Assembly: GCA_014905635.1 (NCBI GenBank)
Contig: JABVCE010000014.1
Span: forward strand, 744,001-808,000
DNA from: Scenedesmus sp. PABB004
Lineage: Eukaryota
Direction: 5' to 3'
Length of the DNA stretch: 64,000 nt
The notes beneath the pieces are model-generated. The model was not told the origin of the DNA, made no database searches, and saw only the letters and a list, made by a program, of their open reading frames with translations. Numbering within the stretch: position 1 is the stretch's first letter; every line of letters starts with the position of its first letter. Of this stretch, positions 1-58,498 are shown one piece after another. The translations under genes were made by a program, and so were the position numbers.

Positions 1-1209
1 GCTCATGGGCCTGGCTTTGAATGGCCTGCAAGGCGGCGCGGCGGGCCCCGCCGCCCTTGCGCACCTCACGGGGCTGGAGGGCTTGACCCTGCGTGACGTC
101 ACGCTGGTCGACCCGGCCGCGGCGTTCACGCCGCTCACACGCCTCACGAAGCTGATGCTGCAGCTGTGGGAGGGTGGCGACAGCGCCACCACGTCAGCGC
201 TGCTGCGCGTGCTGCCGCGCCTGGCCCGGCTGCAGGACCTGGTCCTGGCCTTTGGGGACCACCGGGTCCTGGCCGGCTGCGCCGAGTCTGCCAGCAGCAT
301 CGCGTCGCTCACACAGCTGTCGCGCCTGGCGCTCCGTGGCAGCGATCTGGCGCCCGACGCGGCGGCGCGCCTGTTTGCGCGCGCGCTGCCGTCGCTGCGT
401 GAGCTGACCATCCAATGCACTGACGAGCCTCCAGGAGTTGTGCTTTCGCAGGCCGAGCTGGGCGCCCTGGTCGGCGCCTGCCCCGGCCTGCACGAGCTGC
501 AGCTTCTGTCAGCTGTCGAGCCGGGCGCGTCCTGCATGCGCCTCGGCCTGCTGAGCGAGCTGAAGTCGCTGCACCCGAGGGGCGACTGCGTGGGCGACGA
601 CGACGCGGCGCGCCTGGCGCGCGCTCTGACCGCGCTGCGGGGCCTCAGCATTTGGAGTGCACCCCGGCTGGGCACGGCCGGCGTGGTCCGCCTGGTGGAC
701 GCGACGCAGCTCACCTCTCTGGTCCTTAAGGATTGCGGCGCCAACTATGCCGGCGACGACGACGATGACGACAGCGGCGACGACGCCGGCGTCCTGCATC
801 ACTACATCAAGCTGCTGCGCACACTGCACTTCATCAAGCTGGTGCGCACAGTGGGCACGGGGCGAGCGGGCTGTCCACTGCTGTCGCTGCCTGCGCTTGC
901 CCGCACGCGCGCCGGCCGTCCCCGCGCCGCCGCAGGAGGACCCGCTCACGGTGTCGCACCAGCTGGAGGAGCTGTGCTGCACCAACGAGGTGCTGTGCAG
1001 GGCGCTGCTGGAGCGCAGGAGCGAGCGGCTGGCGGCGGCGCGCGGTGAGCGCGGGCCGGCGCAGGCGCTGGGCGGCGGGCCTCACGCGGGCGTGCAGGAT
1101 CGGGCGTGCGACGTGCTGCCCCCCGCCTCGCCGCGCAGGCGCGCTGGCAGCCAAGGACAAGAAGCTGGCCGCCAAGGAGCTGCAGCAGCCGGGTGGGGGC
1201 CACGGCTGA
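1..1209 (+). CDS. F-box/LRR/coiled-coil repeat-family gene, copy 1 (5' part lies outside the window)
   Basis: LxxLxLxx repeats ([33 protein letters not shown]). Conserved exon 3 (EDPLTVSHQLEELCCTNEVLCRALL, ~936-1045) and exon 4 (~1139-1209, TGA at 1207-1209). Bases ~24-262 are essentially identical to 22862-23100 in copy 3. Confidence 0.85.
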
Positions 1210-1470
1210 GCGTGGCGGCGGCCGTGCGCAAGCAGCAGGCGCGGGGCGGCGCCGGCGGCGGCGCGGTGGGCGAGGTTGTGCGGGCGTGTCGGCAACTGCG
1301 ACACTTGCTGCCCAGCTGCACACGTCACCGCTCGCTCGTCGCCCGCGGCCAGCCGGCAGCCACGCGCGCACCGCTCGCCGCCTGCACCCTGCAAGGCCCC
1401 GCCCGCACCCTGCAGGGCCCCGCCCGCGACCGCGCCGCGCGCCGCCTGGCGGGTCGCCCCCGCGAGCAGC

Positions 1471-3462: not shown

Positions 3463-6702
<3,240 letters not shown>

Positions 6703-7597: not shown

Positions 7598-7603
7598 CCC
7601 CGG

Positions 7604-8395: not shown

Positions 8396-8428
<33 letters not shown>

Positions 8429-12402: not shown

Positions 12403-12569
12403 GCCTCCCCAGGTGCTGTGCTCACGCGCGCATGCTGACAATACTCGAGCGCGACACCCAGCGCCGCGGGAGGCGTTCTGCTGCGGCCGAGCAGCGGGTT
12501 TGCGCCCGGTGGCGGCTGACGAGCGCCGCGGCGTGGCGGCGGCGGGGGGGGGGGGGGGGGGGGGGGGGC

Positions 12570-15012
12570 GGCGGCGAGTGTGAAGGGCAGCGGCGGCGGC
12601 GGCGGCCGCACCACACGACGGCGGCCGCGCGCGAGCGGCAGGGTCGTGCGCAGAACCGCCGCCGACACTCGAGCACGGGCGCGGCGCAGCCAGGGCGGCG
12701 TGGCGGCCCCGTGGACTCCGCCCCGGCGTCGTTTGCCGCTCGCTCGCTCTCCGCGTCCGTGCTGCCGCTGCCGCCCGCTCGGGCAGCCGCGCCAGGCTCA
12801 ACGCGCACACAGGCCGCACAGCGTATCGCCCCCGCTCTCTCCGATGCTTTGGCAGCGCCTGCTGTCCGCTCAGCCGATCACTTGCGCCCCCCGCCCTGCG
12901 CCCAGCTGCTGCTGCAGCTCTGCCAGCTCGGCGGCCTGCGCCTGCTCCCTCGCGCCCGCGGCCGCCAGCTCCTGGTCCTTGGCGGCCAGCGCCACGTCCT
13001 TGGCCGCCAGCGCGTCTGCGCGGCGAGGCGGCGGGCAGCGCGTGAGACGCCCAATCCCGCCCGCCAGCGTGGCGCCAGCCGCCCAGCGCCCGCGCCGGCC
13101 CCCGCTCACCGCGCGCCGCCGCCAGCTGCTCGCTCCTGCGCTCCAGCAGCTATCCTGCACAGCTCCTCGTCACCGCGGCACCGCTCCTCCAGCTGCTGCG
13201 CGACCGTGGGCGCGTCCTCCTGCGGCGATGCGGCGGGGTCGTGTGTCAGCTGTCGTGTGGAGCAGGCGTGTGGAGCAGGCGTGCAGGCTGCTGCCGCAGT
13301 GGGCGGCCTGAAAGGGCCACTGCCACTCTCGTGGCAGCACAGCTCGACAACACCACAGTCCTCATCGCCACCATCAAAGCCGGTGTCGCAGACAAACAGA
13401 CGCACCAGCCGCGTCGTGTCCACCAGGCTGGCCACGCCGGCCGCGCCCAGCCGCGGCGCGCTGACAACGCTGAGGTGCTGCAGCGCGGGCAGCGCGCGCA
13501 CGAGGGGCACCACGTCGGCGTCGCTCACGCAGTCGCCCCTCAGCCACAGCGCCGTCAGCTCGCTCAGCAGGCTGAGGCGCGCGCAGGACGCGCCCGGCTC
13601 GACAGCTGACATAAGCTGCAGCTCGTGCAGGCCGGGGCAGGCGCCGACCAGGGCGTCCAGCTCGGCCTGCGAAAGCAGAACATCTGGAGGCTCGTATGTG
13701 CATTCGATGGCCAGCTCGCGCAGCGCCGGCAGCGCGCGCGCAAACAGGCGCGCCGCCGCGCCGGGCGCCAACTCGCCGCCAAACAGCACCAGGCGCGACA
13801 GCCGCGTGAGCGACGCGATGCTGCTGGCAGATTCGATGCAGCCGAGAGCGCAGCGCTCGGGAGCGCGTGGCCATGGAACAAAGGTTGGTGAGCGCCGGCA
13901 TGCGCGGCAGCGCCGACAGCACCTCGCCAACCGATGCCCCATCGCAACAGTGCAGGTGCAGCTCGTGCAGGCCGGGGCACAGCAAGCCGGGGGGGGGGGG
14001 GGGGAAGGTGCAGTAGTCCATGTGCAGGCGGGTCAGCGCCGGCAGCATGGCGCCGCCGCCGCCGCCGTCGCCGTGCAGCGCCACGGCCATGTGGTTGCAC
14101 GTCAGGCTGAGCAGCTGGGCCAGTGGCAGCGGCAGCTCCAGCGGCACGTAACGGTAATCGGGGGCGGTGGCGTCTAAGCTCACCACGCCGCGCCCCCGCC
14201 CCGCCAGCCAGCCGCTGAGCGCGGCGGCGCGCTGGGCCGCGCTTCCGACCTCGCCAAACTTCACATGCACCTCCCTGCTGGCCGCGGCCACCGCGTCGGC
14301 CCACACGCGGCACACGAGCGCGGCGGCGCCCAGGCGCTCGCGCACGTCCAGCTCCGCCAGCACGCGTGGCAGCACCTCCGCCGGCAGCCGCGCAAAGGCC
14401 GACGCGCCCTGCGGCACGCGCGGAGAGGCGGCTCAGGGAGGGTCAGGCGCGCAGGTGGCGGGGGACGCTGGCTCGCGCGGGCCGGCCGCGGGCGCGGGGC
14501 GCGCACGCAGCAGCGCGCGCACGCCCCCCGCGCCGCCGCAGGCCGCTGGCGCCCGCCCGTGATCCGTGCTCACCGAATCGCCGGGCTCCATGGGCGCGGC
14601 CCTGCAGGCGGGCCCGGGGCCAGGCGCGGCCGCGGCGGGCGGCGCGGCGCGGGCGCGAGCAGCAACGGCGGCGGCGGCGCCTCCTCGCAGGCGGTGCGCA
14701 GGCGTCGCGTGCGGCGCGGGCGCGAGCAGCAGCGACGGCGCCGCCTCCTCGCGGCCGGGCGGGCCGGGCGGGGCTGCGAGGCGGCACCGTAAGAGGGCGC
14801 GGGCGCCGGAGCACGCGGCGCCGTAGTGGCTCAGGCGGCCGGGGCGGCGGGCGCTGCGCGGTCCCAGCCGCGCGCGGGCGGAGCCGAGCGCCTTGTGCGT
14901 CTGCGGGGCGCCTGGCTGCGGCGCAGGGGCTTGGTGTGACCGGGCTGTGCGGGGCGCTGCGGTGGCGGGGAGGCTGCACGCGCCAAGCCCAGGGCGGTGT
15001 GCGCAGAACCGC
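12570..15012 (-). repeat. Repeat unit copy 2 (F-box/LRR cassette plus spacer; spacer motif at both ends)
   Basis: The motif GCGGTTCTGCGC..C..CCCTG (minus-strand reading) occurs at both ~14990-15012 and ~12640-12660. Homology to the other units runs throughout. Confidence 0.75.
12870..14591 (-). pseudogene. F-box/LRR/coiled-coil gene copy 2 with an internal deletion and frameshifts
   Basis: Micro-exon ATG GAG CCC GGC GAT TCG|GT, then F-box [32 protein letters not shown]. The coding sequence jumps from ..SAALS directly to ..GCIESASS at ~13840 (~360 nt missing relative to copy 7) and is split over several frames. Confidence 0.75.
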
Positions 15013-15119: not shown

Positions 15120-18100
15120 TCACGCCGCGGCGGTTGCGACCTTGGCGCCCGGCAGCTTGAACCCCAGCGCGTCCACAACGGGCGCGCAGCGCCCGCAGAG
15201 CTCCGGGTGCTCCGCGCTCGCCGCGCCGACCTGTCGGCGCGCAGCCGCGGCCGCCGCGGTGAGCGCAGGGGTCCCGGGCGCCGCGCGCCTGCGCCGCGCG
15301 CGCCGGAGCGCGCGGCGCCGCGGCCCGCCCAGGCGCGGCCCGCCCTGCGCGCGCGCGCACCTGCGTTGAGTACATCCAGCAGCGCGCGCACTTGGCGCCC
15401 GCCGCGCGGCGCACGCCCACGGTCACGCCGCCGCCGCCGCCGGCCTCGGTCGCCGCGGCCGCGAGCGCGCCGTCGGCCGCGGCCACCGCGCTGGGCGCGA
15501 GCTCCACACTGCTGGCGATCAGCAGATACTTCAGCTCGTCCGCGGCGTTGCCTGCGGCGCGGCGGCGGCGCCGCGGGCGGCGGCCGGCCCCGGCGTGAGA
15601 TCGTGGCGGCTGGCCGGGACCTTGTTCGGCGGCAGGGGCGCGCGCGCGTGCGCGGGGCGGCAGGGCGCGCACGCAGAGCGCCCGCGCGCGTGCGCCGCGT
15701 GCGCGCCGCATACCCGCGGCGTTGAGCTCGGCCAGCCACGCCGCAAGGCCCGGGTCCTCCACGTGCAGCGCCGCCGCGGCCTCGAGGCTGCTCCCGAGCG
15801 CCTTGCCCGCGCGCGCCGCCTCCATCGCGCGCGCGAACGCCTCGCGCACCGCCGGCAGCGCGCCCCAGCGCGCCAGCTCCGCGTCGCTCAGCCCGGCCGC
15901 CCACTCGGGCGGCGGCGCCGCCCAGCCGGCCAGGAAGACGCTGTCGGCCGGCGCGCCGCCGGCCGCGGCGGGGGGCATGCTCAGCCACGCGTCCTCGGCC
16001 ATGTGGGGGACAATCGGCGCGAGCGCCGACAGCAGGCCCTGCGCGCACGGCGGGCGCCAGGGCAGGGCGGCGCGGCGCGGCGTCAGCGCGGCGACGTCAG
16101 CGCGGCGGCGCCAGCGCGGCGGCGTCAGCGCCGCAGCGCCGCGGCGGAGCGGCGTCTTATCAAGCGCCCCGCGCCGCCGGCGGCGGCGCCCCGCGCGCGC
16201 GCGCCTTGAGCACCGCCGCCTGCACTGTCTGGCACGCGCGCCGGCTGGGCGCGCCGGGGGCCTGTATGTAGCAGCGGTCCTTTGCTGCGTCGAGATAGAA
16301 GGAGGAGAGGTCGCCGGACACGTAGTTCAGCAGCGCCTGGTAGGCGCGGCGGAACTGCGGGGGTGGTGTGGTGTGGCGCCCGGTGAGTGAGTGAGTCAAT
16401 GCGTGAGTGAGTGAGTGAGTGAGTGAGTGAGTGAGTGCATGAGTGAGTGAGTGAGTGAGTGAGTGAGTGAGTGAGTGAGTGAGTGAGTGAGTGGGTGAGC
16501 AAAGAAGGGAGGGAGGCCGCCCCCGCCCCGTCCACCCGTCCCCCCCTCGCGCCCCCCGCCCCAGACAGCGGCCGACGCGCGCCTGGTAGGTCTCATACGC
16601 CTCGGCCACCTCCGCCATGACGCCGGCGTGCCGCGCGAGCAGCCAGCGGTCGACCGCGGGGAGCGCGCCGTACGGCACCGCGTGCGTTGACGCGTCAAAG
16701 TCGGCCAGGTTGCCCAGCAGGAAGCGCAGCGTGCCGCGCAGCTTGCGGTACGCCTCGGCCACCTGCTTCAGGATGCCCGCGCCGATCTGGGGGCGGCGCG
16801 GGCGACCGCGTGGGCGGCTTGCGCGCCGCCCCCGCCGCAGCCGCTGGGGCGCCGCCGCCCCGCGCAGGGGCCCCGTGCATGCCGCCCCGCGCGTCGGGCG
16901 GGCCCCACAGCAGGCGCAGGCCCCGTGGGCGCTGCGGCCGCGGCGCGGCCGCGGGCCGCACCATGACGTCGTTGGCGTAGTCGACGCTCGCGACCCACAG
17001 CCGCAGCACGTCGGCGCCGTACGGCGGCTCCTTGGCCGCGTCGGGCCCGCCCATGATGACGCGACGCGGGTCGACCACGTTGCCCAGAGACTTGCTCATC
17101 TTGGCGCCACGCTCGTCCAGCACAAAGCCGTGCGTGAGCACCTGCGCCAGCGCGGCGGCGTGCGAGTTGCGGCGGCGTGTCGGCGCGGGCTCGGGGTGCG
17201 GGCGCCGGGCGTCGAGAGAAGTGCGGGGCCGCCGCGGAGCACCGCGCAGGCGGCGGCGGCGGCGGCGGCGCGCCTGCTTGTACGGCGCGCCGCCCGTGGC
17301 CGCGACGCTCGTGAGCAGCGACGACTGGAACCAGCCTGCGGCCGGGCGGGCGGTGCCGGGCGCGCCGGTCAGGCGCGCGTGGCGCGCCGCGTGCGAGTGC
17401 ACGCTCTCCGGCGCAGCACGCTCCAGCGCAGCACGCGCAGCACACCACGCGCAGCGCACACAGCGCACACAGCGCGCGCCGCACCGCGGTGCTGGTCGCT
17501 GCCCTCGAGGTAGAGGTCGGCGGGGAAGGTCAGGCCCTCGCCCTCGCGCGCGCGCAGCACGCCCGCCCAGCTGCTGCCCGAGTCAAACCACACGTCCATC
17601 GTGTCCTCGCCCTTGACCAGACCCTCCGCCCGGCCGCGCAGCGCCTCCGGCAGCAGCTCCGCGACGCTCGCGGTCCACCACACGTCGCTGCCACGCTCCG
17701 CGACGAGCGCGGTCACGTGCGCGAGCGTCTCCTCCGTCAGCAGCGGCTCGCCTGCGCGCGCGCACGGGGCCGCGACGGTGAGAATTGAGGCCGCGGCGGT
17801 GGCGTCGAGGCCGCCGCGCGCCGCGCCCGGCGCGATGGGTGGGAGGGCTGCACATTCGGCGCGCGCGCGCGTGGGTCGTGCGGTGCGGGCGCGTCCGCCG
17901 CCGCACCCGAGTCCTTGTCGTAGAAGACCGGGATGGGCACGCCCCACTTGCGCTGCCGGCTGATGCACCAGTCGGAGCGGCCCTCCGTCATCGCAGTAAT
18001 GCGGTTGCGCCCGACCGCCGGCACCCAGCTCACGCCGCCGATCGCCTCCAGCGCCTGCGACCTGCGCGCGCACGCACGGCCGCGGCGCCGCGCCCGCGGC

Positions 18101-21100
18101 GGCGGCGGCGCGTCTCGGCGCCGTGCCGCGACGGTGCCGCCGCAGCGCGCGGCGCCGCCGCCGCCGCGCGCCGCCGCCGCGCGCCGGCACTCGCCTGAAG
18201 CCCTCGACGCTCGCAAACCACTGGCTGGTCGCGCGGAAGATGGTCGGCTTCTTGGTCCGCCAGTCGTAGGGACTTGTGGGCGTAGCTCTCCTCCCGCAGC
18301 AGCGCGCCCGCGGCCGCGAGCGCGTCCACGACCGCCGCGTTGCCGTCGCCCTGCGCGGCGAAAAGGCAGGCGGCGCGCGGGCGGCGCGGTGAGCCAGCGG
18401 CGCGGTGAGCCAGCGGCGCGGGACGGCAAGGCGCAGGGTCGGCGGGTGCAGCGGGGCGGCGGGTGAGGCTAGGTCGGCGCACAGCGGCCCGCACCTGGAC
18501 GTTGAGGCCGGCAAACGCGGGGCCCGCCTCGTCCGTGAACCGCCCCGCGTCGTCCACCGGCGACAGCAGCGGCAGCCCGTAGCGCAGGCCGACCTGGGGG
18601 GCGGCCCAGCAGCGACCCAGCGGCGCAGCGCTTGGCGGCGGCCGGACCCGGGCGGCGGCGACCAGGGCGGCCGGCCGGCCCCGGCGGCGCAGACCCCGCG
18701 CCGTCCCTCCCTCCCGGCGCGAACGGAGCGCCTGGCTCCGCTGCTGGGAGGCTGAAAAAAGGACGTCCCGCTGCTGCCGCGCGCCACGCACCTGGTAGTC
18801 CTCCTGCCCGTGCCCCGGCGCGGTGTGGACCAGGCCGGTGCCGCTCTCGGTCGTGATGTAGTCACCGCCGAGGACGAGCGGGCTCACGCGCTCAAAGAGC
18901 GGGTGCTTGTAGCGGCAGCCCTCCAGCGCGGCGCCCTTGAACATCGCCAGCACCTGGCGCAGCGCGGCGCGGGGCGGGCGGGCGGGGCGGCGACGTGGGC
19001 CGGCGTCCGTGGGTGGGTGGGCGGCGGAAGCACGCGCTGCCGCAGCCGTCGGCGGCGCGCGCGCGTAGCGCGGCCACAGCCGCGCGACCGCTCGCGTGCA
19101 CGCACACACCTGCAGCGGCGCGTCAAACTTCTCCGCCAGGCTGTTCACCAGCCCCTCCGCGACAATCAGGTGGTCGCTGTGCCACCCCGCCGCGCCCTCG
19201 CCCTGCGCGCGGCGCGCGCGGTGCGATCGCGTAGGCGTGTCAGCTCAATCGCGGCTCGCCGCGCGTGCGCGGCTCGGGGCCCCGCTGCCCGCCGGGCCGC
19301 GCCCCCTCTGACAGTTGCATTCGGCGCGCCGCCGCACGCCGCACCTCGGCTTTGACGAGGCAATAGTCCAGGTCGGCGTTGACCGCGACCGCCAGGTTGG
19401 CGGGGATCGTCCACGGCGTCGTCGTCCAGATCGCAAACGCGGCGCGCACGCCCGGCGCCGAGAGCGCGCCCGAAACGTCGGCCGGCAGTGCGTCGCCGAG
19501 CGACTGCGCGGCGCGGGCGGCGGGCGCGGCGCGCTGCTTAGCACGCGCCTCCCGTTGCTCGCAAGCCGCCCCCGCCATCCCCTAGGTCCAGCGCGCGCCG
19601 TGCGCCGCACCGTGATGGGCATGGCCACGTAGATGCTGCGGCTCGTGTGGCCCTCCGGGTACTCCAGCTCCGCCTCGGCGAGCGCGGTGCGGCTGCTGGG
19701 CGACCAGTGCACCGGCTTCTTGCCCCTGCGCACGCGCGGCGGCGGCGGGCGCGGCGCGGGGCGGTCAGCAGCCGCCCGTGCACGGCCGAGCCCGGCGGCA
19801 CCGTCACACATCTGCTGGTGCTGTTGGCACCCGCATGCTGGTGCCATCATTGCAAAATGCTGAAATCAGCATGCTATGGCGCCGCCGCACCGATAGATGT
19901 GGCCGTTGAGGAACATCGCGCCAAACACGCGCAGCTGCGCGGCTTCGTACTCGGGCTGCAGCGTGGTGTAGGGCGAACCCCAGTCCGCCCACACGCCGTA
20001 CCTGCGCGCCGCCGCCGCGCGGCGTCGCGGTGGTTGCGGCGGGCACAGCGGCTGTCTGGCCTGCCGCCGCCGCCACGGCGCCCTCGCAGCGCGGCGCCCC
20101 TGCAGCGCAATGCGGCGCGGTGCGCCACCGCACCGTTTGAACTGCTCCTTCTGGGCCTCAACCGTCTGCAGCGCGTACGCGCGCGCCTTGCCGCGCAGGC
20201 CGAGCGTGTCGAGCCCCGCGCGCTCGGCCGGCGGCAGGGCCTGCAGGACCTTGAGCTCGATCGGCAGCCCGTGCGTGTCCCAGCCGGGCACAAACCTGGC
20301 GGCGGGGTTTGCGCGCGGGGTTTGGGCGGCGCGGGCCGGCGCGGCGGCGGCGAGGCGGGGTCGTGAGCCGCCCGCGGCCGCGCGCGCAGCGACCGCCCGG
20401 CACGCGCCCCGGCGGCAGCGGCGCGGCCGCCGCACCGCGCGCGGCGGCCCTGCAGCAGCTGGTAGCGGTTGATTACGTCCTTGAGCACCTGCAGCGCGGC
20501 GCGGCGCATGGCGCAAGGCGCATGGCGGGGGGCACGGCGCGGCACGGCACGGACCGGGGCGCGACGGCGCGCTTCGGCGGGCGCGCGCGGCGGGGCCGCA
20601 GCAGGGCCGTGGCGCGGGGCCCGGCCCGCCTCCCAGGCGCGCGCGCCCTGTCCCCGGGGCGCGCGCGCGCCTTGTTAAGGGCGTGGCCGATGTGGAGGTC
20701 GCCGTTGGCGTAGGGAGGGCCGTCGTGCAGCGTGAACGGCGCCTGCGCCGCGGCGCCGGCCGCGGCGGGCGCGGGGCGGCGGTGAGGCGGGCCGCGCGGC
20801 GCGGCGCCCGCCGCCGACCGCCGACCGCCGCTCGCCGGCGCGGCTGCCGTGCGCCGCCGCCGCCACCGGCGCGAGCGCCGCGCGCTGGCACACACCCCGG
20901 GGTTTTGGCTGGCGAGGCGCTCGTACACGTCGCGCGCGGCCCAGTGCTCCTGGATCTGGGGCTCCCGCACGACGCTGTTGGCGCGCAGGCTGAACTCGGT
21001 GACGGGCGTGGTGACGGTAGGAGAATAGGGACCGCCGCCGGCTGCTGTGCGGGGCACCGAGGCGCGCGCCGGCGCCGGCGCGTGGGCGCTGGCGGCGGGC

Positions 21101-21289
21101 GGCGCCAAGTGCCGCAGCGGCTGCGCCGCGGGGGCGCGGGCAGGCCGCACCTCCGCCCTCCGACTTCTTGCCGCCGCCCTTGCCGCCGGCCTTCTTGCCG
21201 CCCGCGGCCGCGACGGCGCTGCTGCCCCGCCGCAGCGCCGGCAGCAGCGCGGGCGCGCGCCCCAGCAGCCGGCTGCCGCCCGAGAGCAT
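15120..21289 (-). CDS. ileS: Isoleucyl-tRNA synthetase, bacterial-type (chloroplast/mitochondrial), multi-exon
   Basis: HIGH motif [97 protein letters not shown] motif [14 protein letters not shown], and a C-terminal zinc finger KCARCW...LCGRC. The N-terminus resembles a transit peptide. One apparent indel lies at ~18271. Confidence 0.95.
16384..16498. repeat. (GAGT)n tetranucleotide microsatellite, intronic
   Basis: Near-perfect GAGT array with a few interruptions inside an IleRS intron. Confidence 0.95.
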
Positions 21290-21681
21290 CCCCAGAGACT
21301 GCGGAAGCGAATGCGCGGCGCCGGGCGGGCGCTCGGCGCGGCAATTGGGCGGCGGCGGGCGCAGCAGTCGGCGGCAGCGGCGCCCCACCTGGCGCCCCGC
21401 CGCGGTGCGCACTGATGTCGCCTGCCCTCCGGTTGTGCCCAACATCGTGCGAGCGACGCCTACGCGTGCGGCATGCACTCCGCGGCGCCCGGGCGGCGAG
21501 GAGCGCTGGCGGCCACGGGTCGCTGCGCGGCGGGGAGGGACAGGCGGCGCCGTGTGAGGCGCGGCGGGCGGCGGGAGTGCGGTGCGACCGGGAGCGACCA
21601 GTAGGGACATGCCGCGGCGGCCGGCGGGCGCGTGGCGCCGGCGGTGCAGCGGCGGCGGGCGACGCGCGCCCATTTCCGCAG

Positions 21682-24420: not shown

Positions 24421-24488
24421 GCTGCCCTCCGCTGTGCCCTCCGGTGTGCGCCTTGCGTGCGCGGCAGCAGCGCACGTTCGCCGCCGCG

Positions 24489-32674: not shown

Positions 32675-32733
<59 letters not shown>

Positions 32734-36736: not shown

Positions 36737-36771
36737 CGACGACTTGCGGGGCTGGGGCTCGCGCGTGGTGT

Positions 36772-36863
36772 GAGGCAGCGGCAGCTGGCCGCCGAGCTGG
36801 CGGCCGCCGCGCACGTGCTAGCGGCGGAGCTGCAGCAGCAGCTCGGCGCGGGGGCGCAGCTGA
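36772..36863 (+). pseudogene. Isolated last-exon remnant of the F-box/LRR family
   Basis: Encodes [30 protein letters not shown] with no upstream exons. It starts ~35 nt after the methyltransferase stop. Confidence 0.75.
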
Positions 36864-37480
36864 GGGCGTGTGACCGAGCAGGCGCTGCCGCGCGGGAGAG
36901 CCTGCAGCGGGGTTGACATGGGGCGGCCGAGCGTGCGTGCGGTGTGCGGGCGGCTGAGCCGGCCACCGAGCGGGCGGCGGCGGCGGCGCGGATGGGAGCT
37001 GCGGGGCGGGCGGCAGGCAAGCAAGCGAGCGGCAACGGCACCATCGCGCAGAGGGCCCGCCGCGCCGGTCCTGCAGCTCCGCCGCTTCTTCAGCAACCAC
37101 ACCTCGAGCGGCCGGCGCCGCCGGGCCGCGGCGGCGGTTCTGCGCGCACCGCCCTGCCGCGCGCGCCGCAGTCGCCGTGTGGTGCGTCCGCCACGACTCT
37201 GCAACACTCGCGGCAGCCGCCCCGTGCCCACACACCGCGCTCGCCTGCGCCCGCACCGCACACGGCCGTTTGAACTGCGCAGCGCCCGCGCGCGCCCCCC
37301 GGCCGCCTGGTCGCTGCAGCGCCGCGTGCTCCTGCGCCCTCGCCCTCTCCCGGTGCCGCCCCGCAGCCCCGCCCGGCCCGCCCGGCCGCGAGGAGGCGGC
37401 GCCGCCGCCGCTGCTCGCCCCGCGCCGCGCCGCCCGCCGCGGCCGCGCCTGGCCCCGGCCCCGCCTGCAGCGCCGCGTCC

Positions 37481-39613: not shown

Positions 39614-40230
39614 GCGGGCGCGACAGAGCAGGCGCCGCCGCATGCGGGCGCCTGCAGCGGGGGTGAGATGGGGCGGCCGAGCGTGCGTGCGGTGTGCGTG
39701 CGGCTGAGCCGGCCACCGAGCGGGCGGCGGCGGCGCAGATGGGAGCCGCGGGGCGGGCGGCAGGCAAGCGAGCGAGCGGCAACGGCGCCGTCGCGCAGCG
39801 GGCCCGCCGCGCCGCTCCTCCAGCTCTGCTGCTTCCTCAGCAACCTCACCGTGAGCTGCTGGTGCCGCCGGGGCCGGCGGCGGTTCTGCGCGCACCGCCC
39901 TGCCGCGCGCCGCGGTCGCCGTGTGGTGCGGCCGCCGCCACGACTCTGCAACATTCGCCGCAGCCGCCTCGCCGCCACACAGAGCGCTCGCCTGCGCCCG
40001 CGCCGCACACGCACCGTTCGAACTGAGGCCCCGCCCGTCCGCGCCTCCCGGCCCGCCTGTTCGCTGCAGCGCCGCGTGATCGGGCGCCCTCGCCCTCTCC
40101 CGGTGCCGCCCCGCCGCCCCGCCCGGCCCGCCCGGCTGCGAGGAGGCGGCGCCGCCGCCGCTGCTCGCCCCGCGCCGCGCCGCCCGCCGCGGCTGCGCCT
40201 AGCCCCGGCCCCGCCTGCAGCGCCGCGTCC

Positions 40231-42380
40231 ATGGCGCCCGGCGATGCGGTGAGCGCGGATCAAGGGCGGGTGCCAGCGGCTGGCGGCCGGCGGCGGCGCG
40301 GGGGCCGTGCGCGCGCCGCCGCTGCGTGCGCCCGCGCGCCCGCCGCCGCCGTCGCGTGAGCCAGCGCCGCGCCGCCCGCCGGCTGCGCGCCTGACCCTCC
40401 CTGCGCCGCCTCTCCGCGCGTGCCGCAGGGCGCGTCGCCCTTTGCGCGGCTGCCGGCGGAGGTGCTGCCGCTCGTGCTGTCGGAGCTGGACCTGCGCGAC
40501 CGCCTGGGCGCCGCCGCGCTTGTGTGCCGCGCCTGGGCCGACGCGGCGTCCGCGGCCAGCAGGGACGTGTGCATTGAGCTCGGCGAGCATGAACATGCAG
40601 CCCAGCAGCGCGCCGCCGCGCTCAGCGGCTGGCTGGCGGGGCGCGGGCGCGGCGTGGTCAGCCTGGACGTGACCGGCGACGACGAGGATGTGTCGCACTG
40701 GCAACACTGTTGTGTTGAGTTGAAGCTGCTGCTGCCGCTGCCCCAACTGCGCAGCCTGAGGTGTCATCGCATGGACGTGGCCCTGCGCGGCGACGACGGC
40801 GGCGGCGGCGGCGCCCCGCTGCCGGCGCTGACCCGCCTGCACATGGACGAGTGCACCTTCCCCGCCGCCCTGCTGTGCCGCGGCCTGCGCGAGCTGAGCC
40901 TGTACAGTTGCGATGGGGCATCTTCTGACGAGGTGCTGGCGGCGCTGCCGCGCATGCCGGCGCTGACAGAGCTCTTCATCGCTGGCCCCGATGGCTCCTC
41001 GCTCTCGGGGGCGGCGGCGCTCTCAGGCGCGGCCGTACTCTCGGCCGCGGCCGCGGTGACCGGGCTGCGGCACCTGGTGATGTCGTGTTGGGTGTTGCAT
41101 GACAACACGCACGCAACGACCCCTGCCGCCATCCCGCCGCTGCCGCCCGAGCTCACGCACCTGGAGCTGGACGGCCTGGACGGCAGCGCTGCGGGTCCCG
41201 CTGCCCTCGCGCACCTCACGGGCCTGGAGTTTTTGCACCTACGTGACATCACGCTCGTCGACCCGGCCGCAGCGTTTGCGCCGCTCACGCGCCTCTCGGC
41301 GCTGACGCTGGACCTGTGGAAGGGCGGCGACAGCTCCACCACGTCGGCGCTGCTGCGCGTGCTGCCATGCCTGGCCCGGCTGCGGGACCTGCAACTTGAC
41401 TTTGGGGCAGACCACCAGATCCTGGCCGGCTGCGCCGAGTCTGCCAGCAGCATCGCGTCGCTCACGCAGCTGTCACACCTGCGGCTGCGTGGCAGCGATC
41501 TGGCGCCCGGCACGGCGGCGTGCCTGTTTGCGCGCGCGCTGCCGTCACTGCGTAAGCTGCAGATTGCTTGCGTTGAGAGCACGCCAGGCCTGCGACTGGC
41601 GCAGGCCGAGCTGGACGCCCTGGTCGGCGCCTGCCCCGGCCTGCGGCAGCTGCACCTCTTTAAGATTGCCGGCCCAGGCACAAGCTGCGTCCGCCTCGGC
41701 CCGCTGAGCGAGTTGAGGTGGCTGCACCTGGCCGGCGACTGCGTGGGCGACGCCGACGTGGCGCACCTGGCGCGCGCGCTGCCTGTGCTGCAGGACCTCA
41801 GCGTGCGCAGTGCGCTGCGGCTGGGCTCCGCCGGCGCGGCCAGCCTGGTGGACGCAACGCGGCTGAGCCGTCTACAGCTTGCCTTCTGTGGTGTGCAACA
41901 CTGCATCGACGACGATGCCGACATCGACCTGACGTGCGAGGTGCGCGGCGGCGGGCGCGGGGCGTCGCCAACAGCCACGCGGCTGCCCGTCGCACGCCTG
42001 CACACGCGCGCGCCCGCCGCCACACCCCTCGCCCGCGTCGCCGCAGGAGGACCCGCCCACGGTGTCGCACCAGCTGGAGGAGCTGTGCTGCACCAACGAG
42101 GCGCTGAGCAGGGCGCTGGTGGCGCATCAGCGCCAGCAGCTGGCGGCGGCGCGCGGTGAGCGGGGGCCGGCGCTTGCGCCGGGCGCTGTGCCTCGTGCCG
42201 GCGCGGTGGGCTGATCGTCGCACGCGCTGCCTGCCGCCGCCGCCGCTGCCGCCGCGCCCCGCAGACGCGCTGGCGATTGCGGGTGCGAGGGAGCGGGAGC
42301 AGGCCGCCGAGCTGGCGGCCGCGCGCGCGCTGGCGGCGGAGCTGCGGCAGCAGCTAGGCGCGGCGCGCGGGCACAGTTGA
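40231..42380 (+). CDS. F-box/LRR/coiled-coil gene copy 6 (intact; exons 40231-40248, 40429-41940, 42047-42155, 42265-42380)
   Basis: All three introns have GT...AG ends that preserve frame, with a CTGAC branch-like motif at 40391. Encodes an F-box, roughly a dozen LRRs and a coiled-coil tail. Confidence 0.88.
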
Positions 42381-43015
42381 GCGGGGGCGCGACCGAGCAG
42401 ACGCTGCCGCGCGGGAGAGCCTGCATCGGGGACGAGATGGGGCGCCTGAGCGTGCGTGCTGCGTGCGGCTGAGCCGGCCACCGAGCGGGCGGCGGCGCGG
42501 GTGGGAGCCGCGGGGCGGGCGGCAGGCAAGCAAGCGAGCGGCAACGGCACCATCGCGCAGAGGGCCCGCCGCGCCGGTCCTGCAGCTCCGCCGCTTCTTC
42601 AGCAACCACACCTCGAGCAGCCGGCGCCGCCGGGGCCGGCGGCGGTTCTGCGCGCACCGCCCTGCCGCGCGCCGCGGTCGGCGTGTGGTGCGGCCGCCGC
42701 CCCCGCTCTGCAACACTCGCCGCAGCCGCCCCGTGCCCACACACACCGCGCTCGCCTGCGCCCGCACTGCACACGCGCCGGCGCGGCGGCCTGCTGTTCA
42801 AACTTGAAACATCTGCTCGCGCCGGGAGAGCGACCCCGCGCGGCGCCCACGGTCGCAGAGCGCGTTGATCGGACCCCGGAGCATCAGGGGGCAGGCGTGC
42901 GCGACCGCAGCGCAGGCCGCGACCGCGCCCACACCGGGGGCGGCCTCGCTCGCTCCCTGCCGGGGCAGCGCAGCGCCCTGCATGCCGGCGTGACGGGCAC
43001 GGCCGGTGCGTCGCC

Positions 43016-52109: not shown

Positions 52110-55100
52110 ATGTTTGACACCGCCATCGTGGGGCTGTGGGTGCCCGCGGTGGTGTTTGCCCACGTCTTCAGCGCCTACTGGTTCATCAGGACCGCCCTGG
52201 TCTACAATCCCGCCGCCTTCTCGCTCCGGCGACGCCCCCGGCCCTCCACGACCGGGCTGCCCGTCAAGGGCGGCGCGGCGGAGCCCGAGGACGAGCGCGC
52301 CGTGGAGGCGGTGCTGGCCGGCGCCAAGGGCAGCCTGAGCGGCGCGCCGCCCCTCATTCGTGAGTGCTGGGAGCTTGCAAGCCTCCCGGGCCGCGTGCCA
52401 GGGCGCCGGGGGCCGTGGGGCCGAGGCGGCCCGCGGCGTTGGCGCGCATCGCGCGGCCGGCCGCCCGACGCGCCCCCGGCGCGCGCCGCAGGCGCAAAGG
52501 TCGTCACCGAGAGCGAGGGCGACGGCTCGGCCGATGGCGGGCCCGGCAAGCGCCCCGGCGGGCGGGCGGCGGCGAGCGTGCAGCGCGTGCACCTGGAGTG
52601 GCAGCAGCTCTGCTGCAGCTACAGCGTCGGCGGCGCCAAGCTGGTGGTGCTGCAGGACGTCTGGGGCTCTGCGGCGCCGGGCGAGATGCAGGTGCGGCGG
52701 CGGCGCGAGCGGCGCGGGCGGCGCGAGCGGCGGCGGCGCGGGCGGCGCGAGCGGCGGCGGCGCGGGCGGCGCGCGCGGCGGCGCGCGGCGGCGCGGGCAG
52801 CCGCCAGCGGCCAGCGCGGCCGGCGCAGCGCAGGCTGGCGGCCGCACAAGGCAGCGGGTGCCGGCCGCACGCTCCTGCAGCCGTGCTGGCGCTGCGCGGC
52901 CCGGCGCGCGCCGCCCACTGGCCCGCGCGCCTGCCTGGCGCCGCGCGCAGGCGCTGCTGGGTCCGAGCGGCGCGGGCAAGTCGACGCTGATGGACATCCT
53001 GGCGCAGCGCAAGAGCATGGGCAGTCTCAGCGGCTTCCTGCTGGTCAACGGCCGCCCCGCGGGCAGCAGCTTCATCCGCAAGACGGCCTACGTGCCCCAG
53101 GTGCGCGCCGGGCGCCGCGCGCAGCGCCCGCTGGCAGCGGCGGCGGCGGCGCCGACGGCGGCAGCAGCAGCAGCTCGGACGGCGGCAGTGCTGGACACAG
53201 CTGTGGCGGCAGCGGCGGCAGCTTGGTCAGCAGCACCGGCAGCGGCGGCGGCGGCGGCGGCGCTCACTTGCCCGCGCCGCCGCGGTCGCCTCCCCGCTGC
53301 CGCCGCTGGTGCCGCCGCCGCGCGCAGGACGACAACTTTGTCGCGACGATGACGACCGCCGAGACGATGGCCTTTTACGCGGACATCATCCTGCCCTCCA
53401 CCTGGACCAAGGCCGACCGCAAGGCGCGCGTGGCCGAGGTGCTGGCGGCCATGGGCCTGCGCCACAAGCACCGCACCATGGTCGGCGGCACGCTGCCGGG
53501 CGGCCTCATGCTGCGCGGCCTCAGCGGCGGCGAGCGCAAGCGGCTCAGCATCGCCGCGGGCATCCTGGCGGCGCCGAGCATTGTGTACCTGGACGAGCCG
53601 ACCAGCGGGCTGGACAGCTTCTCGGCGCTGACCGTGATGGGCTACCTGAAGCGCATGGCGCGCGACAACGGGCACGTGGTGATTGCCTCCATCCACCAGC
53701 CCCGCTCCGCCATCTGGTCCATGTTTGACAAGGTGCGGCGCGCAGCTCTGCCGTGCGGCGGCGGCGGCAGCAGCGGCGGCGGCAGCAGGCGACGGCAGCA
53801 GGCGGCGGCAGCAGCAGACGCCCGTGCGGCAGGCTGGCAGCCGGCCGGGCGCTGACGCGCGCGCGCACCCGCGCCCGCGCCCGCCTCCGCCGCTGCCGCC
53901 GCCCCGTGCAGGTGACGCTGCTGGCGAGCGGGCGGCTGATGTTCCACGGCGCGCGCGACGACCTGGTGCCCTGGTTTGGGCACCTGGGCTACGCGTACGA
54001 CCCCGCGCTGCACGGCGTGGCCTCGGACTGGGCGCTGGACCTGGTGGCCATCGGCTTCCACAAGCCCAAGCGCTTCTACGGCCACACCATCACCACCACC
54101 GAGGAGCTGGCGCGCGCGAGCAGCGAGTTTGTGGCCAGCTACGCCGCCGGGGTCGCGCCCTTTGCCGGCGGCAGCGGCAGCATGATCGGCTCCAAGTCGC
54201 TCGGCCAGAAGATGCAGGCGCGCGTCAACAAGCTCGTTGGCGCGCGTGCCAGCACCGGCGGCGTCGGCTCTGCCGTCATGCCGATGGCCAGCGACACCAG
54301 CAGCGACGGCGACGCTCTGGACTTCCCGAAGGACCTGGTGCCCGCGCTCGCGGCGCCGCGCGGCGGCGCGGACGCGCAGGTGCACGGCGCGCCGCCGCAG
54401 TCCAAGTGGGCGACCGGCTGGTGGCGCCAGTTTGCGTCGTGCTACTGCCGCGAGCTGCTCTCGATCACGCGCAACCCCGCCGACGTCGCTGGGCGCACGA
54501 TGACCTTTGCCTGGGTGGGCATCCTCATGGGCCTGCTCTACTACGGCATGCCCAGCGACGCGAGCAGCATCCGGGGGCGCCTCAACATGACCTTCAACAA
54601 CCTGGTCTTCTTCTGCCTCATGCCCTACGTCTCGATGAGCCTCTACTGCGCCGACAAGAAGTTTTACCTCGCCGACGCGAGCGCCAAGCTCTACCGCCCG
54701 CACGCGTACTACGCGGCCAAGGTGCTCGCCATCACGCCGTTCCACATCATCTCGGCGCTCGTCTTCACGTTCACCATCTACGGCATGACCGGCCTGCGCC
54801 CCGGCGGCCGCTTCATCCTGCAAAACGGCACCATCTCCACGCTGCTGCTGCTCATCTCGTCGCAGGTGCGGCGGCCAGCGGTCGTGCGGGCTGCGTTCTG
54901 CGCGATGCGCTACGCTGCACTGCGCTGCGCCGCGCGCCGCCGCGGCCTGAGCCCCGCGCCGCCGCGCCGCCGCGCCGCCGCGCCGCCGCGCCGCCGCCGC
55001 CAGGTGCTGCACGCGTGCGCGATCATCGCGCCCAACCAGGACGTCGCGTTCATGCTGAGCATCGTGTGGACGGCGGTGCAGCTGTTCTTCAGCAACTACT

Positions 55101-55480
55101 TCATCCTCTTCACGCAGGTCAAGCTCTCGGGCATCACCTTTTTCCGCTGGGGCTCGGCGCTCTGCTACGCGTTTGAGGGCATGCTCGTGACCGAGTTTGG
55201 CGGCATGCGCTACCGCTGCGACGGCGGGCTCGACGCCGCGTCGCTGAGCATGCTGCGCACGCTGCTGCCCGGCAACCGCTGGCTCAGCATGCCCGCCGTC
55301 GTGGCGGGGCTCGAGCGCCCCGGCGCCGACTGCGTCGCCGACACCGACGCGGTGCTGGACTACTACGGCTTCCGCCAGCCCTTCACCCACACCTTTGGCA
55401 TCCTGCTCGGCTACCTCGCCGTCTGCCACGCCGCGACGTACGCGGCGATGATCGCCGTCGCGCGCCACGAGCGCCGCTGA
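52110..55480 (+). CDS. ABCG (White-type) half transporter, paralogue A, multi-exon
   Basis: Walker [11 protein letters not shown]-loop AYVPQ|DD, signature [12 protein letters not shown], Walker [19 protein letters not shown], and a C-terminal ABC2 membrane domain. There is an extra N-terminal TM segment. Confidence 0.93.
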
Positions 55481-56080
55481 GCGGGAGCGCCGCCGGGCGG
55501 CCGCGCGCTCGGGGGAACGGCGCGGCGGCGGCGCGCGGGGCACGCGCGGCGTGCGCAGCGTGCGCGGCGTGCGCGCGTGATCTGTCAATCCTCGGCCGCT
55601 GATCAGCAAACCCAATCTTGCGTGTGCGCGTGCTCCCCGGCGTGCCCGGCGGCGCCTGTGCATGCGGCGCGGGCGGCGCACCGGGGAGGGGAGCGGGCCT
55701 TCTTTCACGACGGGACTGCCTTGGAGGGGTGTGCGACCAACGGCAGCCACGCTCCGCTCGCGGCAGCGGCCGGCGGCGGTTCTGCGCGCCCCCAGCCCGC
55801 ACACTCGCCGCAGCCGCCTGGTGCCACACTCTGCGCTCGCCTGCGCCACGCCGCACACACACGCCAGTTCGGACTGTGCAGCGCCCGTCCGCGCCCCCCG
55901 GCCGCCTGGTCGCTGCAGCGCCGCGTGCTCCGGCGCCCTCGCCCTCATCCGCTGCCGCCCCGCAGCCTCGCCCAGCCCGCCCGGCCGCGAGGAGGCGGCG
56001 CCGCCGCCGCTGCTCGCGCCCGCGCCGCGCCGCCCGCCGCGGCCGCGCCTGGCCCCGGGCCCGCCTGCAGCGCCGCGCCC

Positions 56081-58498
56081 ATGGAGCCCGGCGATGCGGT
56101 GAGCACGTATCATGGGCGGACGCCAGCGGCCGGCGGCCGGCGGCGGCGCGGGGGCCGTGCGCGCGCCGCTGCGTGCGCCCCCGCGCCCGTGGCCGCCCCC
56201 GCGCGAGCCAGCGCCGCACCCCCGCCGACTGCGCGCCTGACCCTCCCTGTGCCGCCCCGGTCACGAGCCGCAGGGCGCGTCGCCCTTTGCGCGGCTGCCG
56301 GCGGAGGTGCTGTCGCGCGTGCTGGCGGCGCTGGACCTGCCCGAGCGCCTGGGCGTCGCCGCGCTCGTGTGCCGCGCCTGGGCCGACGCGGCGGCCGCGG
56401 CCAGCAGGGACGTGTGCATAGAGCTTGGCGAGGCCGACAGTACGGCCGAGCGCGCCGTCGCGCTCAGCAGCTGGCTGGCGGGGCGCGGGCGCGGCGTGAC
56501 CAGCCTGGACGTGACCGGCGGCTACGTGGTGCAGTTGAAGCTGCCGCTGCCGCTGGCCCAGCTGCGCAGCCTGTTGTGCTATTGCATGGACGTGGCGCTG
56601 CGCGGCGACGACGGCGGCGGCGGCGACGCCCCGCTGCCTGCGCTGACCCGTCTGGACATGGACGAGTGCACCTTCCCCGCTGCCCTGCTGTGCCGCGGCC
56701 TGCGCCAGCTGCGTCTGAACTACTGCATAGGGGCATCGTCTGAAGAGGTGCTGGCGGCGCTGCCGCGCATGCCGGCGCTGACAGAGCTCATCATCGCTGG
56801 CCACGCGCTCGACAGCGCCGCGCTCTCGGCCGCGGCCGCGGTGACGGGGCTGCGGCGGCTGGTGCTGTGTATGTACGGCGCACCAGGGCCAATGCACGTC
56901 CCGCCGCTGCCGCCCGCGCTCACGTGTCTGGCTTTGGACGGCCTGAAAGGCGGCGCGGCGGGCCCCGCTGCCCTCGCGCACCTCACAGGCCTGGAGTGCT
57001 TGTCCCTGCTTGAGGTCGTGCTGGTGGACCCGGCTGCAGCGTTCGCGCCGTTCACGCGCCTCATGACGCTTCATCTGCACCTGTGGTCCAGCGACAGGGC
57101 TGCCACATCGGCGCTGCTGCGCGTGCTGCCGCGCCTGGCCCGGCTGCATGGTCTGGCCCTTGACTTTGCGGCAGACCACCAGATCCTGGCCGGCTGCATC
57201 GAATCTGTCAGCAGCATCGCGGCGCTCACGCGGCTGTTGCGCCTGGTGCTGCGCGGCGACGAGTTGGCGCCCGGCGCGGCGGCGCGCCTGTTTGCGCGCA
57301 TGCTGCCGTCACTGCGTGGGCTGACCATCTCTTGCGCTGTCAGCGGGCCACGCGTGCGGCTGGCGCAGGCCAAGCTGGACGCCCTGGTCGGCGCCTGCCC
57401 CCGCCTGCGGGGGCTGAAGCTCTCGCATGCAGTCGAGCTCGGCACAAGCTGCGCGCGCCTCAGCCTGCTGAGCGAGCTGAGAGCGCTGAACCTGGCCGGC
57501 GACTGCGTGAGCGACGACGACGTGGCGCACCTGGCACGCGCGCTGCCTGTGCTGCAGGACCTCAGCGTTGTCAGCGCGCCGCGGCTGGGCGCGCTCGGCG
57601 TGGCCAGCCTGGTGGACGTCACGCGGCTGAGCCGTCTCCAACTCGCCGACTGCGGCGTGCAAGAATACTTCGACGATGATGGCGACATCGAGTTGACGTG
57701 GAAGGTGAGCGCGGCGTGCGCAGGGCGCCGCAAACGGCCACGCAACTGCCCGCTGCACGCCTGCACACGCGCGCGACCGCCCCTCGCCCGTGCCGCCGCA
57801 GGAGGAGCACGCGTGGTGGACGGTGTCGCGCCAGCTGGAGGAGCTGTGCTGCACCAACGAGGCGCTATGCAGGGCGCTGGTGGCGCGAAAAAACGCGCAG
57901 CTGGCGGCGGCGCGCGGTGAGCGGCGGCCGGCGCGGGCGCTGGGCGCCGCGCCTCGTGCCGGCGCAGGGGACAGAGCGTCTCACGCGCTGCCCGCCGCCG
58001 CCGCCGCCGCGCCCCGCAGACGCGCTGGCGGCTAGGTGGCAGCAGCAGGCCGCCGAGCTCGCGGCTGCACGTCAGTGGCTCCAACAGCAGGCCGCCGAGC
58101 TCGCGGCTGCACGTCAGTGGGGGCAACAGCTCGCCGCCGAGCTCGCGGCTGCGGGCACGAGGGAGTGGCAGCTGGCCGCGGAGCTCGCGGCTGCACGTCA
58201 GTGGGGGCAACAGCTCGCCGCCGAGCTCGCGGCCGCAGGCACGAGGGAGTGGCAGCTGGCCGCCGAGCTCGCGGCTGCACATCAGTGGGGGCAACAGCTC
58301 GCCGCCGAGCTCGCGGCCGCAGGCACGAGGGAGTGGCAGCTGGCCGCCGAGCTCGCGGCTGCACATCAGTGGGGGCAACAGCTCGCCGCCGAGCTCGCGG
58401 CCGCAGGCACGAGGGAGTGGCAGCTGGCCGCCGAGCTGGCAGCCGCGCGCGCGCTGGCAGCGGAGCTGCAGCGGCTGGGCATGGGCGCGGCCGAGTGA
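56081..58498 (+). CDS. F-box/LRR/coiled-coil gene copy 7 (intact, expanded coiled-coil tail)
   Basis: Micro-exon MEPGDA|GT, F-box and LRR exon, exon 3 [16 protein letters not shown], and exon 4 with ten AAELAAA units. Confidence 0.85.
58038..58450 (+). repeat. Coding minisatellite: 42-nt module with an 84-nt higher-order period
   Basis: [27 protein letters not shown](R/H) occurs four times, preceded by two single 14-aa units. Confidence 0.92.

Follow-up and report, generated by a model that had tools for sequence, protein, structure and literature searches.

Mosaic paralogues in an F-box–leucine-rich repeat gene cluster of the green alga Scenedesmus sp. PABB004 and their probable origin by interlocus gene conversion

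Seven related gene copies in the window

The 64,000-nt stretch of DNA analyzed here (positions 744,001 to 808,000 of contig JABVCE010000014.1, assembly GCA_014905635.1; hereafter the window) comes from the green alga Scenedesmus sp. PABB004 and carries a cluster of related genes for predicted F-box proteins with leucine-rich repeats (LRRs). Self-comparison by BLASTN and a tblastn search with the protein of copy c4 revealed exactly seven gene copies within the window (c1 to c7, Table 1), whose overall nucleotide identity to one another ranges from 77 to 82%. The copies are mosaics, and the mosaic structure is statistically significant and present in silent sites. Very probably, the mosaics arose from repeated ectopic (interlocus) gene conversion between the paralogues of this lineage-specific green-algal cluster.

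Exon models were drawn from a MAFFT alignment of the copy units. The models comprise four exons with conserved junctions of the GTGAGC...CGCAG type. Exon 1 consists of 18 nt (ATG and five codons), while exon 2 is 1.4–1.5 kb long and encodes the F-box, a poly-Gly linker and the LRRs. Exon 3 measures about 110 nt, and the product of exon 4 is rich in Q, A, E and L. After splicing, the reading frames of c4, c5, c6 and c7 are open to a common stop; in c7, this stop codon (58496–58498) coincides with the end coordinate given in an initial annotation of the window. The annotated relatives P0001 and P0155 (see below) match the models at the exon 1/2 junction and in the coiled-coil tail. In c7, exon 4 contains an 84-bp tandem repeat (58085–58437, 4.2 copies, 97% matches) encoding coiled-coil units of 28 residues (QLAAELAAA...), and the C-terminal tail is longer than in the other copies. 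The poly-Gly linker is encoded by a (GGC)n microsatellite in exon 2 (c4 ~32660–32750) and differs greatly in length between copies, that of c4 being by far the longest; the c4 microsatellite cross-matches many GGC-rich spots elsewhere in the window.

Four copies (c4 to c7) are intact; the window edge truncates c1, a 1-bp frameshift interrupts c3, and c2 is clearly broken. The part of exon 2 present in c1 is open in frame, but a private acidic insertion in the exon-2 tail makes the 3' gene model of this copy uncertain. Copy c2 is a pseudogene, in which ~390 bp have been lost internally (junction 13844/13845), a single base is deleted near 13878, a poly-C stretch has expanded (13986–14006) and the exon-2 donor at 13330 reads GA in place of GT. 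In c3, one base is missing between 22316 and 22317 (CC to C), directly after the F-box. The loss may be a genuine lesion or, as the change is from CC to C, an indel of the assembly.

Copies c5 and c6 form a tandem pair with a period of ~2752 bp. Remnants of unit ends were observed at three further places: a segment upstream of c5 (36762–37100) resembles the 3' ends of other copies, and segments downstream of c3 (~23972–24437) and of c6 (42380–42780) resemble the upstream regions of c4, c5 and c6. These remnants point to a tandem array that was formerly longer and was later split and interspersed with housekeeping genes. The tandem pair and the unit-end remnants show that unequal recombination built the array.

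Protein family and predicted structure

Eight open reading frames (ORFs) of the copies were scanned with Pfam, and LRR families were found in all of them. PF24758 exceeds its cutoff (27 bits) in c4 (32.6) and c1 (32.1), and PF23598 reaches 29.9–39.5 bits, under its cutoff of 40. The F-box-like family PF12937 (cutoff 24.3) scores 32.2, 32.4 and 33.7 bits in the c3, c5 and c6 ORFs; the scanned c4 and c7 fragments, which begin within the F-box, reach 14.4 and 15 bits. Apart from F-box and LRR families, nothing was detected in the eight ORFs, in particular no NB-ARC, TIR or CC (coiled-coil) signalling domain. An identity as plant-type nucleotide-binding LRR (NLR) or resistance (R) genes was rejected, there being no NB-ARC-type domain joined to the LRRs.

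A fold could be assigned by prediction. An AlphaFold model of c4 exon 2, computed from an alignment of five family members, is a β-strand/helix solenoid (predicted local distance difference test, pLDDT, 74; predicted template modelling score, pTM, 0.74), and the 14 β-strands of the model fall on 14 of 14 LxxLxL motifs. A Foldseek search with this model retrieved the LRR solenoids of internalin A, TIR1, COI1 and Toll-like receptors (TLRs) at E-values of 3e-10 to 1e-6. The matches to TIR1–ASK1, COI1–ASK1 and D3–ASK1 had E-values of 2e-8 to 4e-7, with a sequence identity of 13–16% and TM-scores of 0.37–0.47. At the sequence level, matches in the PDB were weak (F-box of FBXL17, E 4e-4; TIR1, E 5e-3).

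Among 1.84 billion cluster representatives (50%-identity clusters) there were 469 matches at E ≤ 1e-3. Only one representative, P0001, matched at E ≤ 1e-30, and the next match was 35% identical. Judged by these matches, the family is a lineage-specific clade within the broad F-box–LRR class. From its domain content, the product is a predicted substrate receptor of an SCF (Skp1–cullin–F-box) ubiquitin ligase.

The nearest named proteins are also from Scenedesmus sp. PABB004: HT031_004477 (here P0001), 'roco8' (P0155) and 'ADH9' (P0156). They show 59–62% identity over 96–99% of the query and an identical 19-residue N-terminus. All three lie together on one contig of 1,005,304 bp and are not encoded by the copies in the window. 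In P0155 (1934 aa) and P0156 (928 aa) the family start MEPGDAGASPF is internal, and the two are annotated with unrelated upstream domains (kinase/DnaJ-C and alcohol dehydrogenase). Both public gene models look like fusions of merged genes.

Shared peptides and exchange tracts

An initial annotation of the window had described the copies as patchworks and quoted 14 shared peptide strings. Six-frame translation recovered 14 of 14 in the copies named. For instance, CTDEPPGVVLSQ is encoded at 416 (+) in c1 and its counterpart CTYEPPDVLLSQ at 13702 (-) in c2, while a 15-residue peptide is common to 22486 and 37963 (c3, c5) and a 24-residue peptide to 32299 (-) and 41239 (+) (c4, c6). CMYGAPGP was found at 32437 (-) and 56868 (+) (c4, c7); c5 and c7 share LPVLQDLSVVSAPRLGALGVASLVD (38980 and 57543) as well as EHAWWTVSRQL (39218 and 57805). 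The nearest neighbour of a copy was indeed found to switch, both along alignment windows and from LRR to LRR. In such windows, the identities to the best and second-best partner were 99/86% for c1–c3, 93/76% for c1–c2, 92/70% for c2–c4 and 90/74% for c3–c5.

These switches could be delimited as tracts (Table 1), in every one of which the two copies are mutually closer than either is to any other copy. The annotation had matched c1 to c3 over approximately 24–262 and thereafter to c2, and both tracts were recovered. Over the c1–c3 tract, which holds a perfect run of 107 bp, the best identity of c1 or c3 to other copies is 89.7%. It is the only tract that looks recent (98.7%); the others are 84–96% identical and therefore represent old events that have since diverged. 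Conversion had been proposed to be frequent. Exchange between paralogues is the best reading of the tree, silent-site and patch evidence given below, whereas a high frequency is not borne out by a single recent-looking tract.

The clearest tracts measure 73–233 bp at high identity, and diverged ones extend up to ~270–490 bp. With LRR units of 57–102 bp, the tracts thus span about one to five repeats; blocks are exchanged, as had been suggested, but a block size of single LRRs is not borne out. Likewise, the invariant scaffold DNA through which exchange was thought to proceed is present in every pair of copies, in the form of 5–24 identical runs of at least 20 bp (longest runs 31–107 bp). Breakpoints fall inside identical runs, and the well-defined tracts are too few for a comparison of breakpoints with LRR boundaries.

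Broken copies had been proposed as possible donors. Tracts in common with open copies occur in c2, which is broken, and in c3 with its frameshift, but they do not reveal a direction of transfer. Switching also extends beyond the window, since P0001, P0155 and P0156 likewise change their nearest neighbour along the protein. Over one stretch of 30 residues, the identity between P0001 and c5 reaches 96%, and the sister relationship of P0155 and P0156 is confined to the N-terminal LRRs, where they show 58–83% identity to each other versus 35–56% to the next-nearest member.

Table 1. Gene copies, exchange tracts and neighbouring features of the window (coordinates are window positions).
Feature	Position	Strand	Identity	Status or content
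c1	1-1250	+		cut by window start; LRR5 onward, exon 3 936-1044, short exon 4
c2	12556-14914	-		pseudogene
c3	21681-24427	+		exons 21995-22012, 22196-23604, 23688-23796, 23896-24074
c4	30929-33723	-		intact; exons 33271-33254, 33073-31586, 31487-31379, 31281-31055
c5	~37182-39613	+		intact; exons 37481-37498, 37675-39117, 39218-39329, 39429-39613
c6	39926-42380	+		intact; exons 40231-40248, 40429-41940, 42047-42155, 42265-42380
c7	55797-58498	+		intact; exons 56081-56098, 56274-57704, 57802-57916, 58020-58498; stop codon 58496-58498
c1-c3 tract (youngest)	24-256 vs 22862-23094	+ (24-256)	230/233	LRR6, LRR7, parts of LRR5 and LRR8
c1-c2 tract	291-560 vs 13558-13827	+ / -	246/270; other copies <=80.4%	LRR9-11
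c2-c4 tract	13050-13457 vs 31320-31724	- (31320-31724)	330/393 (84.0%); other copies <=71.2%	exon-2 tail, intron 2, exon 3, part of intron 3
c5-c7 tract	38927-39055 vs 57490-57618	+ (38927-39055)	124/129	LRR12-13
second c5-c7 tract	38660-38772 vs 57223-57335		107/113	
c4-c6 tract	32172-32408 vs 41130-41366	- / +	216/237	LRR5-7; copies oppositely oriented
c3-c6 tract	23651-23841 vs 41992-42200	+ (23651-23841)	177/191	end of intron 2, exon 3, start of intron 3
isoleucyl-tRNA synthetase gene	16163-22448	-		several introns
inverted duplication	52568-55481 / 59190-62063	+ / -	87% (~2.9 kb)	ABCG-type transporters (ABC_tran + ABC2_membrane) in both arms

Tests of one tree versus many

The annotation had named a single tree fitting all parts of the gene as one outcome that would speak against mosaicism. 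One tree was rejected. In the pairwise homoplasy index (PHI) test, the observed value was reached by 0 of 2000 permutations, whichever of five sets of taxa and columns was used. When the test was restricted to non-coding columns or to third codon positions, one of 2000 permutations reached it in either case. A parsimony breakpoint search was carried out by dynamic programming over all topologies (15, 105 and 105 trees). For five taxa and K = 5, it yielded 950 steps, compared with a mean of 979.5 and a minimum of 972 in 100 permutations. The observed length was also below all 50 and all 30 permutations in the two sets of six taxa.

Maximum-likelihood trees were then compared by approximately unbiased (AU) tests for five segments of the six-copy alignment (columns 331–1014, 1015–1383, 1384–2124, 2129–2377 and 2378–2993; A to E). 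Each segment rejects the trees of the other segments (all p < 0.02, many below 1e-3), with the exception of B and D. These two share the tree ((c3,c5),(c6,c7),(c2,c4)), which is rejected by the intervening segment C (AU p about 2e-4). At least four distinct topologies occur along 2.7 kb. With 105 topologies per segment and branch lengths free both ways, the best trees for the single segments gain 76.0 log-likelihood units over the best single topology.

Pair-specific tracts were sought with a GENECONV-like scan. With a lenient penalty, the scan gives long, mismatch-rich fragments. A stricter version returns many short tracts that represent the scaffold conserved in all copies, and only its top entries are pair-specific. 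Pair-specific tracts reached the minimum attainable p (0.001, 1000 permutations) in 5 of 10, 3 of 15 and 3 of 21 pairs of the three sets.

Could such conflict between trees arise without any exchange? Parallel substitutions under selection at few LRR positions, together with rate heterogeneity, could mimic mosaicism. The variation is concentrated at few positions on one face of the repeats, and homoplasy is high (1005 steps over 727 variable sites in five taxa), as this explanation would have it. However, the PHI signal persists in non-coding columns and third positions (1/2000 each), the c2–c4 and c3–c6 tracts cross introns, and the clustering of compatible sites beats all permutations. The signal in non-coding and third positions and the tracts spanning introns therefore argue against convergent protein evolution, and we consider an origin by parallel substitution extremely unlikely.

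Exchange could also have taken the form of unequal crossing-over, with duplication of chimeric genes in the former tandem array by a birth-and-death process. Copies c5 and c6 still stand in tandem with their ~2752-bp period, remnants of unit ends persist upstream of c5 (36762–37100) and downstream of c3 (~23972–24437), and the ~390-bp deletion in c2 is of a type that recombination between misaligned repeats can give. Such a process must nevertheless account for a B–C–D pattern of trees that needs two breakpoints per event, for at least four distinct topologies within 2.7 kb, and for exchange across opposite orientation and intervening housekeeping genes. Since B and D share one tree on either side of a differing C, the pattern points to patch-like conversion and not to single crossovers. 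The same conclusion follows from tracts that join copies in opposite orientation (c4(-)/c6(+) and c2(-)/c1(+)). Because the copies are opposite in orientation and split by housekeeping genes, reciprocal crossovers between them would invert or delete essential DNA. It is thus quite improbable that the mosaics stem mainly from crossing-over, and we infer that conversion was the prevailing route.

The quality of the assembly has to be considered as well, as reads of one paralogue may build or correct another. Paralogues of ~80% identity with identical runs of up to 107 bp are a recognized hazard in polishing, and the loss of a single base from a CC dinucleotide in c3 is typical of a consensus error. 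Tracts copied by artefact would be identical, yet all but one have diverged (84–96%). Taken together, the tracts are 84–98.7% and not 100% identical, which speaks against a simple assembly collapse. In addition, the phylogenetic signal is coherent across hundreds of base pairs and introns, P0001, P0155 and P0156, which were annotated independently outside the window, show the same switching at the protein level, and the likely source assembly consists of 77 contigs with an N50 of ~1.3 Mb according to a published table (PMC12571836). We regard artefacts of assembly or polishing as a very unlikely source of the mosaics. Assembly error is still of most concern for the c1–c3 tract and the frameshift in c3.

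Where the variation sits

Conservation is unevenly distributed along the gene. Mean pairwise identity is 95% in the F-box part (five full copies), 92% in the upstream DNA and 89% in intron 1, compared with 82% in the LRR part of the exon. The 5' region (alignment columns 331–930) is either homogenized or strongly constrained. In one upstream stretch, c4 (33443–33354) and c5 (region 37305–37399) are identical at 89 of 90 positions.

Within the LRRs, variation is concentrated on the predicted concave β-strand face of the solenoid. At the x positions of LxxLxLxx, which line this face in the model, the nonsynonymous divergence (dN) is 0.48, versus 0.14 elsewhere in the LRRs. Correspondingly, 14 of 70 positions are invariant on the concave face, as against 166 of 268 elsewhere (Fisher p = 2e-10).

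Gene conversion as the probable source of the mosaics

The following sequence of events would account for these results. Local duplication would have given an array of units of ~2.75 kb, of which the c5–c6 pair is still in tandem. Ectopic repair would start and resolve on the identical 20–100 bp runs of LRR scaffold and on the highly similar 5' region. The resulting conversion tracts of ~70–500 bp would carry one to about five LRRs at a time from copy to copy. As an outcome, each copy would carry its own combination of LRR β-strand variants on a common scaffold, with the F-box, the promoter-proximal DNA and intron 1 being kept nearly uniform meanwhile. By analogy with other members of the F-box family, the β-strand combinations may alter the choice of SCF substrate, as the combinatorial specificities envisaged in the annotation would require.

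Several points weigh against this interpretation. The mosaics were read from assembled sequence, and the c1–c3 tract could in principle be a polishing artefact. When flanking neighbours were compared, either direction of transfer cost an equal number of events for the c1–c3 and c1–c2 tracts, and no tract can be given a donor and an acceptor. The segments used in the AU tests were picked post hoc from the same data; the permutation controls, which address this point, therefore provide the unbiased test. Between the tandem neighbours c5 and c6, no pair-specific tract reaches significance (p 0.09–0.33), hence proximity does not obviously drive exchange. Finally, the ratio dN/dS (dS, synonymous divergence; method of Nei and Gojobori) is only 1.13 at face positions (range 0.77–1.82; above 1 in 6 of 10 pairs) versus ~0.7 elsewhere, dS is raised at face positions too (0.45 versus 0.21), and such estimates are unreliable at a third-position G+C content (GC3) of 0.885. 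With a face dN/dS of ~1.1 and estimates made rough by the GC3, positive selection is not claimed; diversifying selection at the face positions is plausible.

A more directed process can be envisaged, in which expressed copies are rewritten somatically or at a high rate from silent or broken donors, akin to variable lymphocyte receptors (VLRs) or to pseudogene-templated antigenic variation. The broken c2 and c3 do share tracts with open copies, and variable β-strand segments lie like cassettes between constant DNA. On the other hand, four genes are complete and individually equipped with an upstream region, a start codon, an F-box and splice sites, in place of an expression site with cassettes, and every tract but one is old and diverged. 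A scan of 35 neighbouring ORFs showed no dedicated enzyme, although it was not designed for that. A programmed diversification of this kind is barely conceivable here. A VLR-like or pseudogene-templated cassette architecture was rejected in view of the four complete genes.

Repeated interlocus conversion is also compatible with a wider role. The family might constitute a fast-evolving repertoire of SCF recognition proteins, immune-like or concerned with self and non-self, and directed at viral, selfish-element or mating-related proteins. Ectopic conversion of LRR β-strand cassettes would combine them into new binding surfaces, and c2 and c3 would act as a donor reservoir. In this streamlined alga, whose lineage would be without classical NLRs, the cluster would be the ubiquitin-ligase counterpart of plant R-gene clusters. 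We consider this extension rather unlikely.

Comparison with known systems

As a mechanism, interlocus conversion within a cluster of LRR genes is nothing unusual, the pattern being known from plant R-gene and F-box clusters. The instance is new in that it concerns a lineage-specific F-box–LRR–coiled-coil family in an extremely GC-rich green alga. A literature search found nothing on this family or process in green algae, which is not proof of absence.

Tomato Cf-4/9 is an LRR resistance-gene cluster with sequence exchange between paralogues. For the SH3 cluster of coffee, whose genes encode coiled-coil, nucleotide-binding site and LRR (CC-NBS-LRR) proteins, paralogues have been reported to undergo gene conversion, and solvent-exposed residues to be under positive selection (PMC3113787). 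In the Arabidopsis RPP8 triad, intergenic conversion was inferred, and the tandem duplicates have more in common with a distant paralogue than with one another (PMC6771003). The lack of special sharing between tandem duplicates is mirrored by c5 and c6 here. Akin to plant R-gene clusters, the algal cluster combines LRR paralogues, conversion, variation at exposed LRR residues and pseudogenes amid intact copies. Unlike them, the algal genes lack an NB-ARC or receptor domain and have an F-box module, the presumed output being ubiquitylation and not immune signalling; moreover, the host is a unicellular chlorophyte, and the face dN/dS is only ~1.1.

F-box families provide the second comparison. 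The S-locus F-box genes of Petunia and Malus represent a family with exchange or rapid diversification, and work by Thomas in 2006 reportedly dealt with F-box family diversification among nematode and plant adapters. The lamprey VLR genes, in turn, are assembled by donor-templated diversification. A conversion tract was found by GENECONV in mammalian Fbxo6/Fbxo44 (PMC3984280), and C. elegans F-box genes are reported to be under strong positive selection (PMC8120010). In these F-box families, as in the alga, the substrate domain of an adaptor diversifies after local duplication, in some of them with interlocus exchange. The algal family differs in that its substrate domain is an LRR, not an FBA, FTH or other domain, and in its C-terminal coiled coil and its status as a lineage-specific clade. 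The receptors TIR1, COI1, D3/MAX2 and FBXL17, whose structures are solved, have the same order of an F-box followed by an LRR solenoid; however, these are conserved hormone or quality-control receptors of single or low copy number, whereas the algal cluster is hypervariable. P0001, P0155 and P0156 belong to the same family and share its N-terminus, exon junction, coiled-coil tail and neighbour switching.

A chlorophyte F-box–LRR cluster thus evolves like plant resistance-gene clusters, with a uniform 5' end and F-box, a variable predicted ligand face, exchange and pseudogenes. The copies make up a concrete set of candidates in the search for what algal SCF receptors recognize. Gene trees and public gene models of the family call for recombination-aware analysis before they are trusted, two of the models looking like fusions.

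Genomic setting

For the genome of Scenedesmus sp. PABB004, a comparative study gives a size of 39.8 Mb in 77 contigs (N50 ~1.3 Mb), 78.5% GC, 7,092 genes and 1.31% repeats (PMC12571836), and mentions many gene-family contractions in this compact genome. The retention of a diversifying family of ten members in such a compact and contracting genome hints at a selective value.

The G+C content is 74–83% throughout the window (~78% overall), and genes are spliced. Across all six frames, 150 stop-free ORFs of at least 200 aa are present, and the majority have a high content of Ala, Arg, Pro and Gly. As a G+C content of ~78% leads to long stop-free ORFs everywhere, ORF length is no guide to genes in the window. 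The scan of 35 neighbouring ORFs identified, interspersed with the copies, genes for a Suv3-like helicase, isoleucyl-tRNA synthetase (IleRS), a HAD acid phosphatase, DNA polymerase alpha and two ABCG transporters. The 5' end of the IleRS gene is arranged head-to-head with c3, a few hundred base pairs from the conserved upstream region of this copy. At the other end of the cluster, c7 is placed exactly between the arms of the inverted duplication that carries the ABCG transporters (Table 1).

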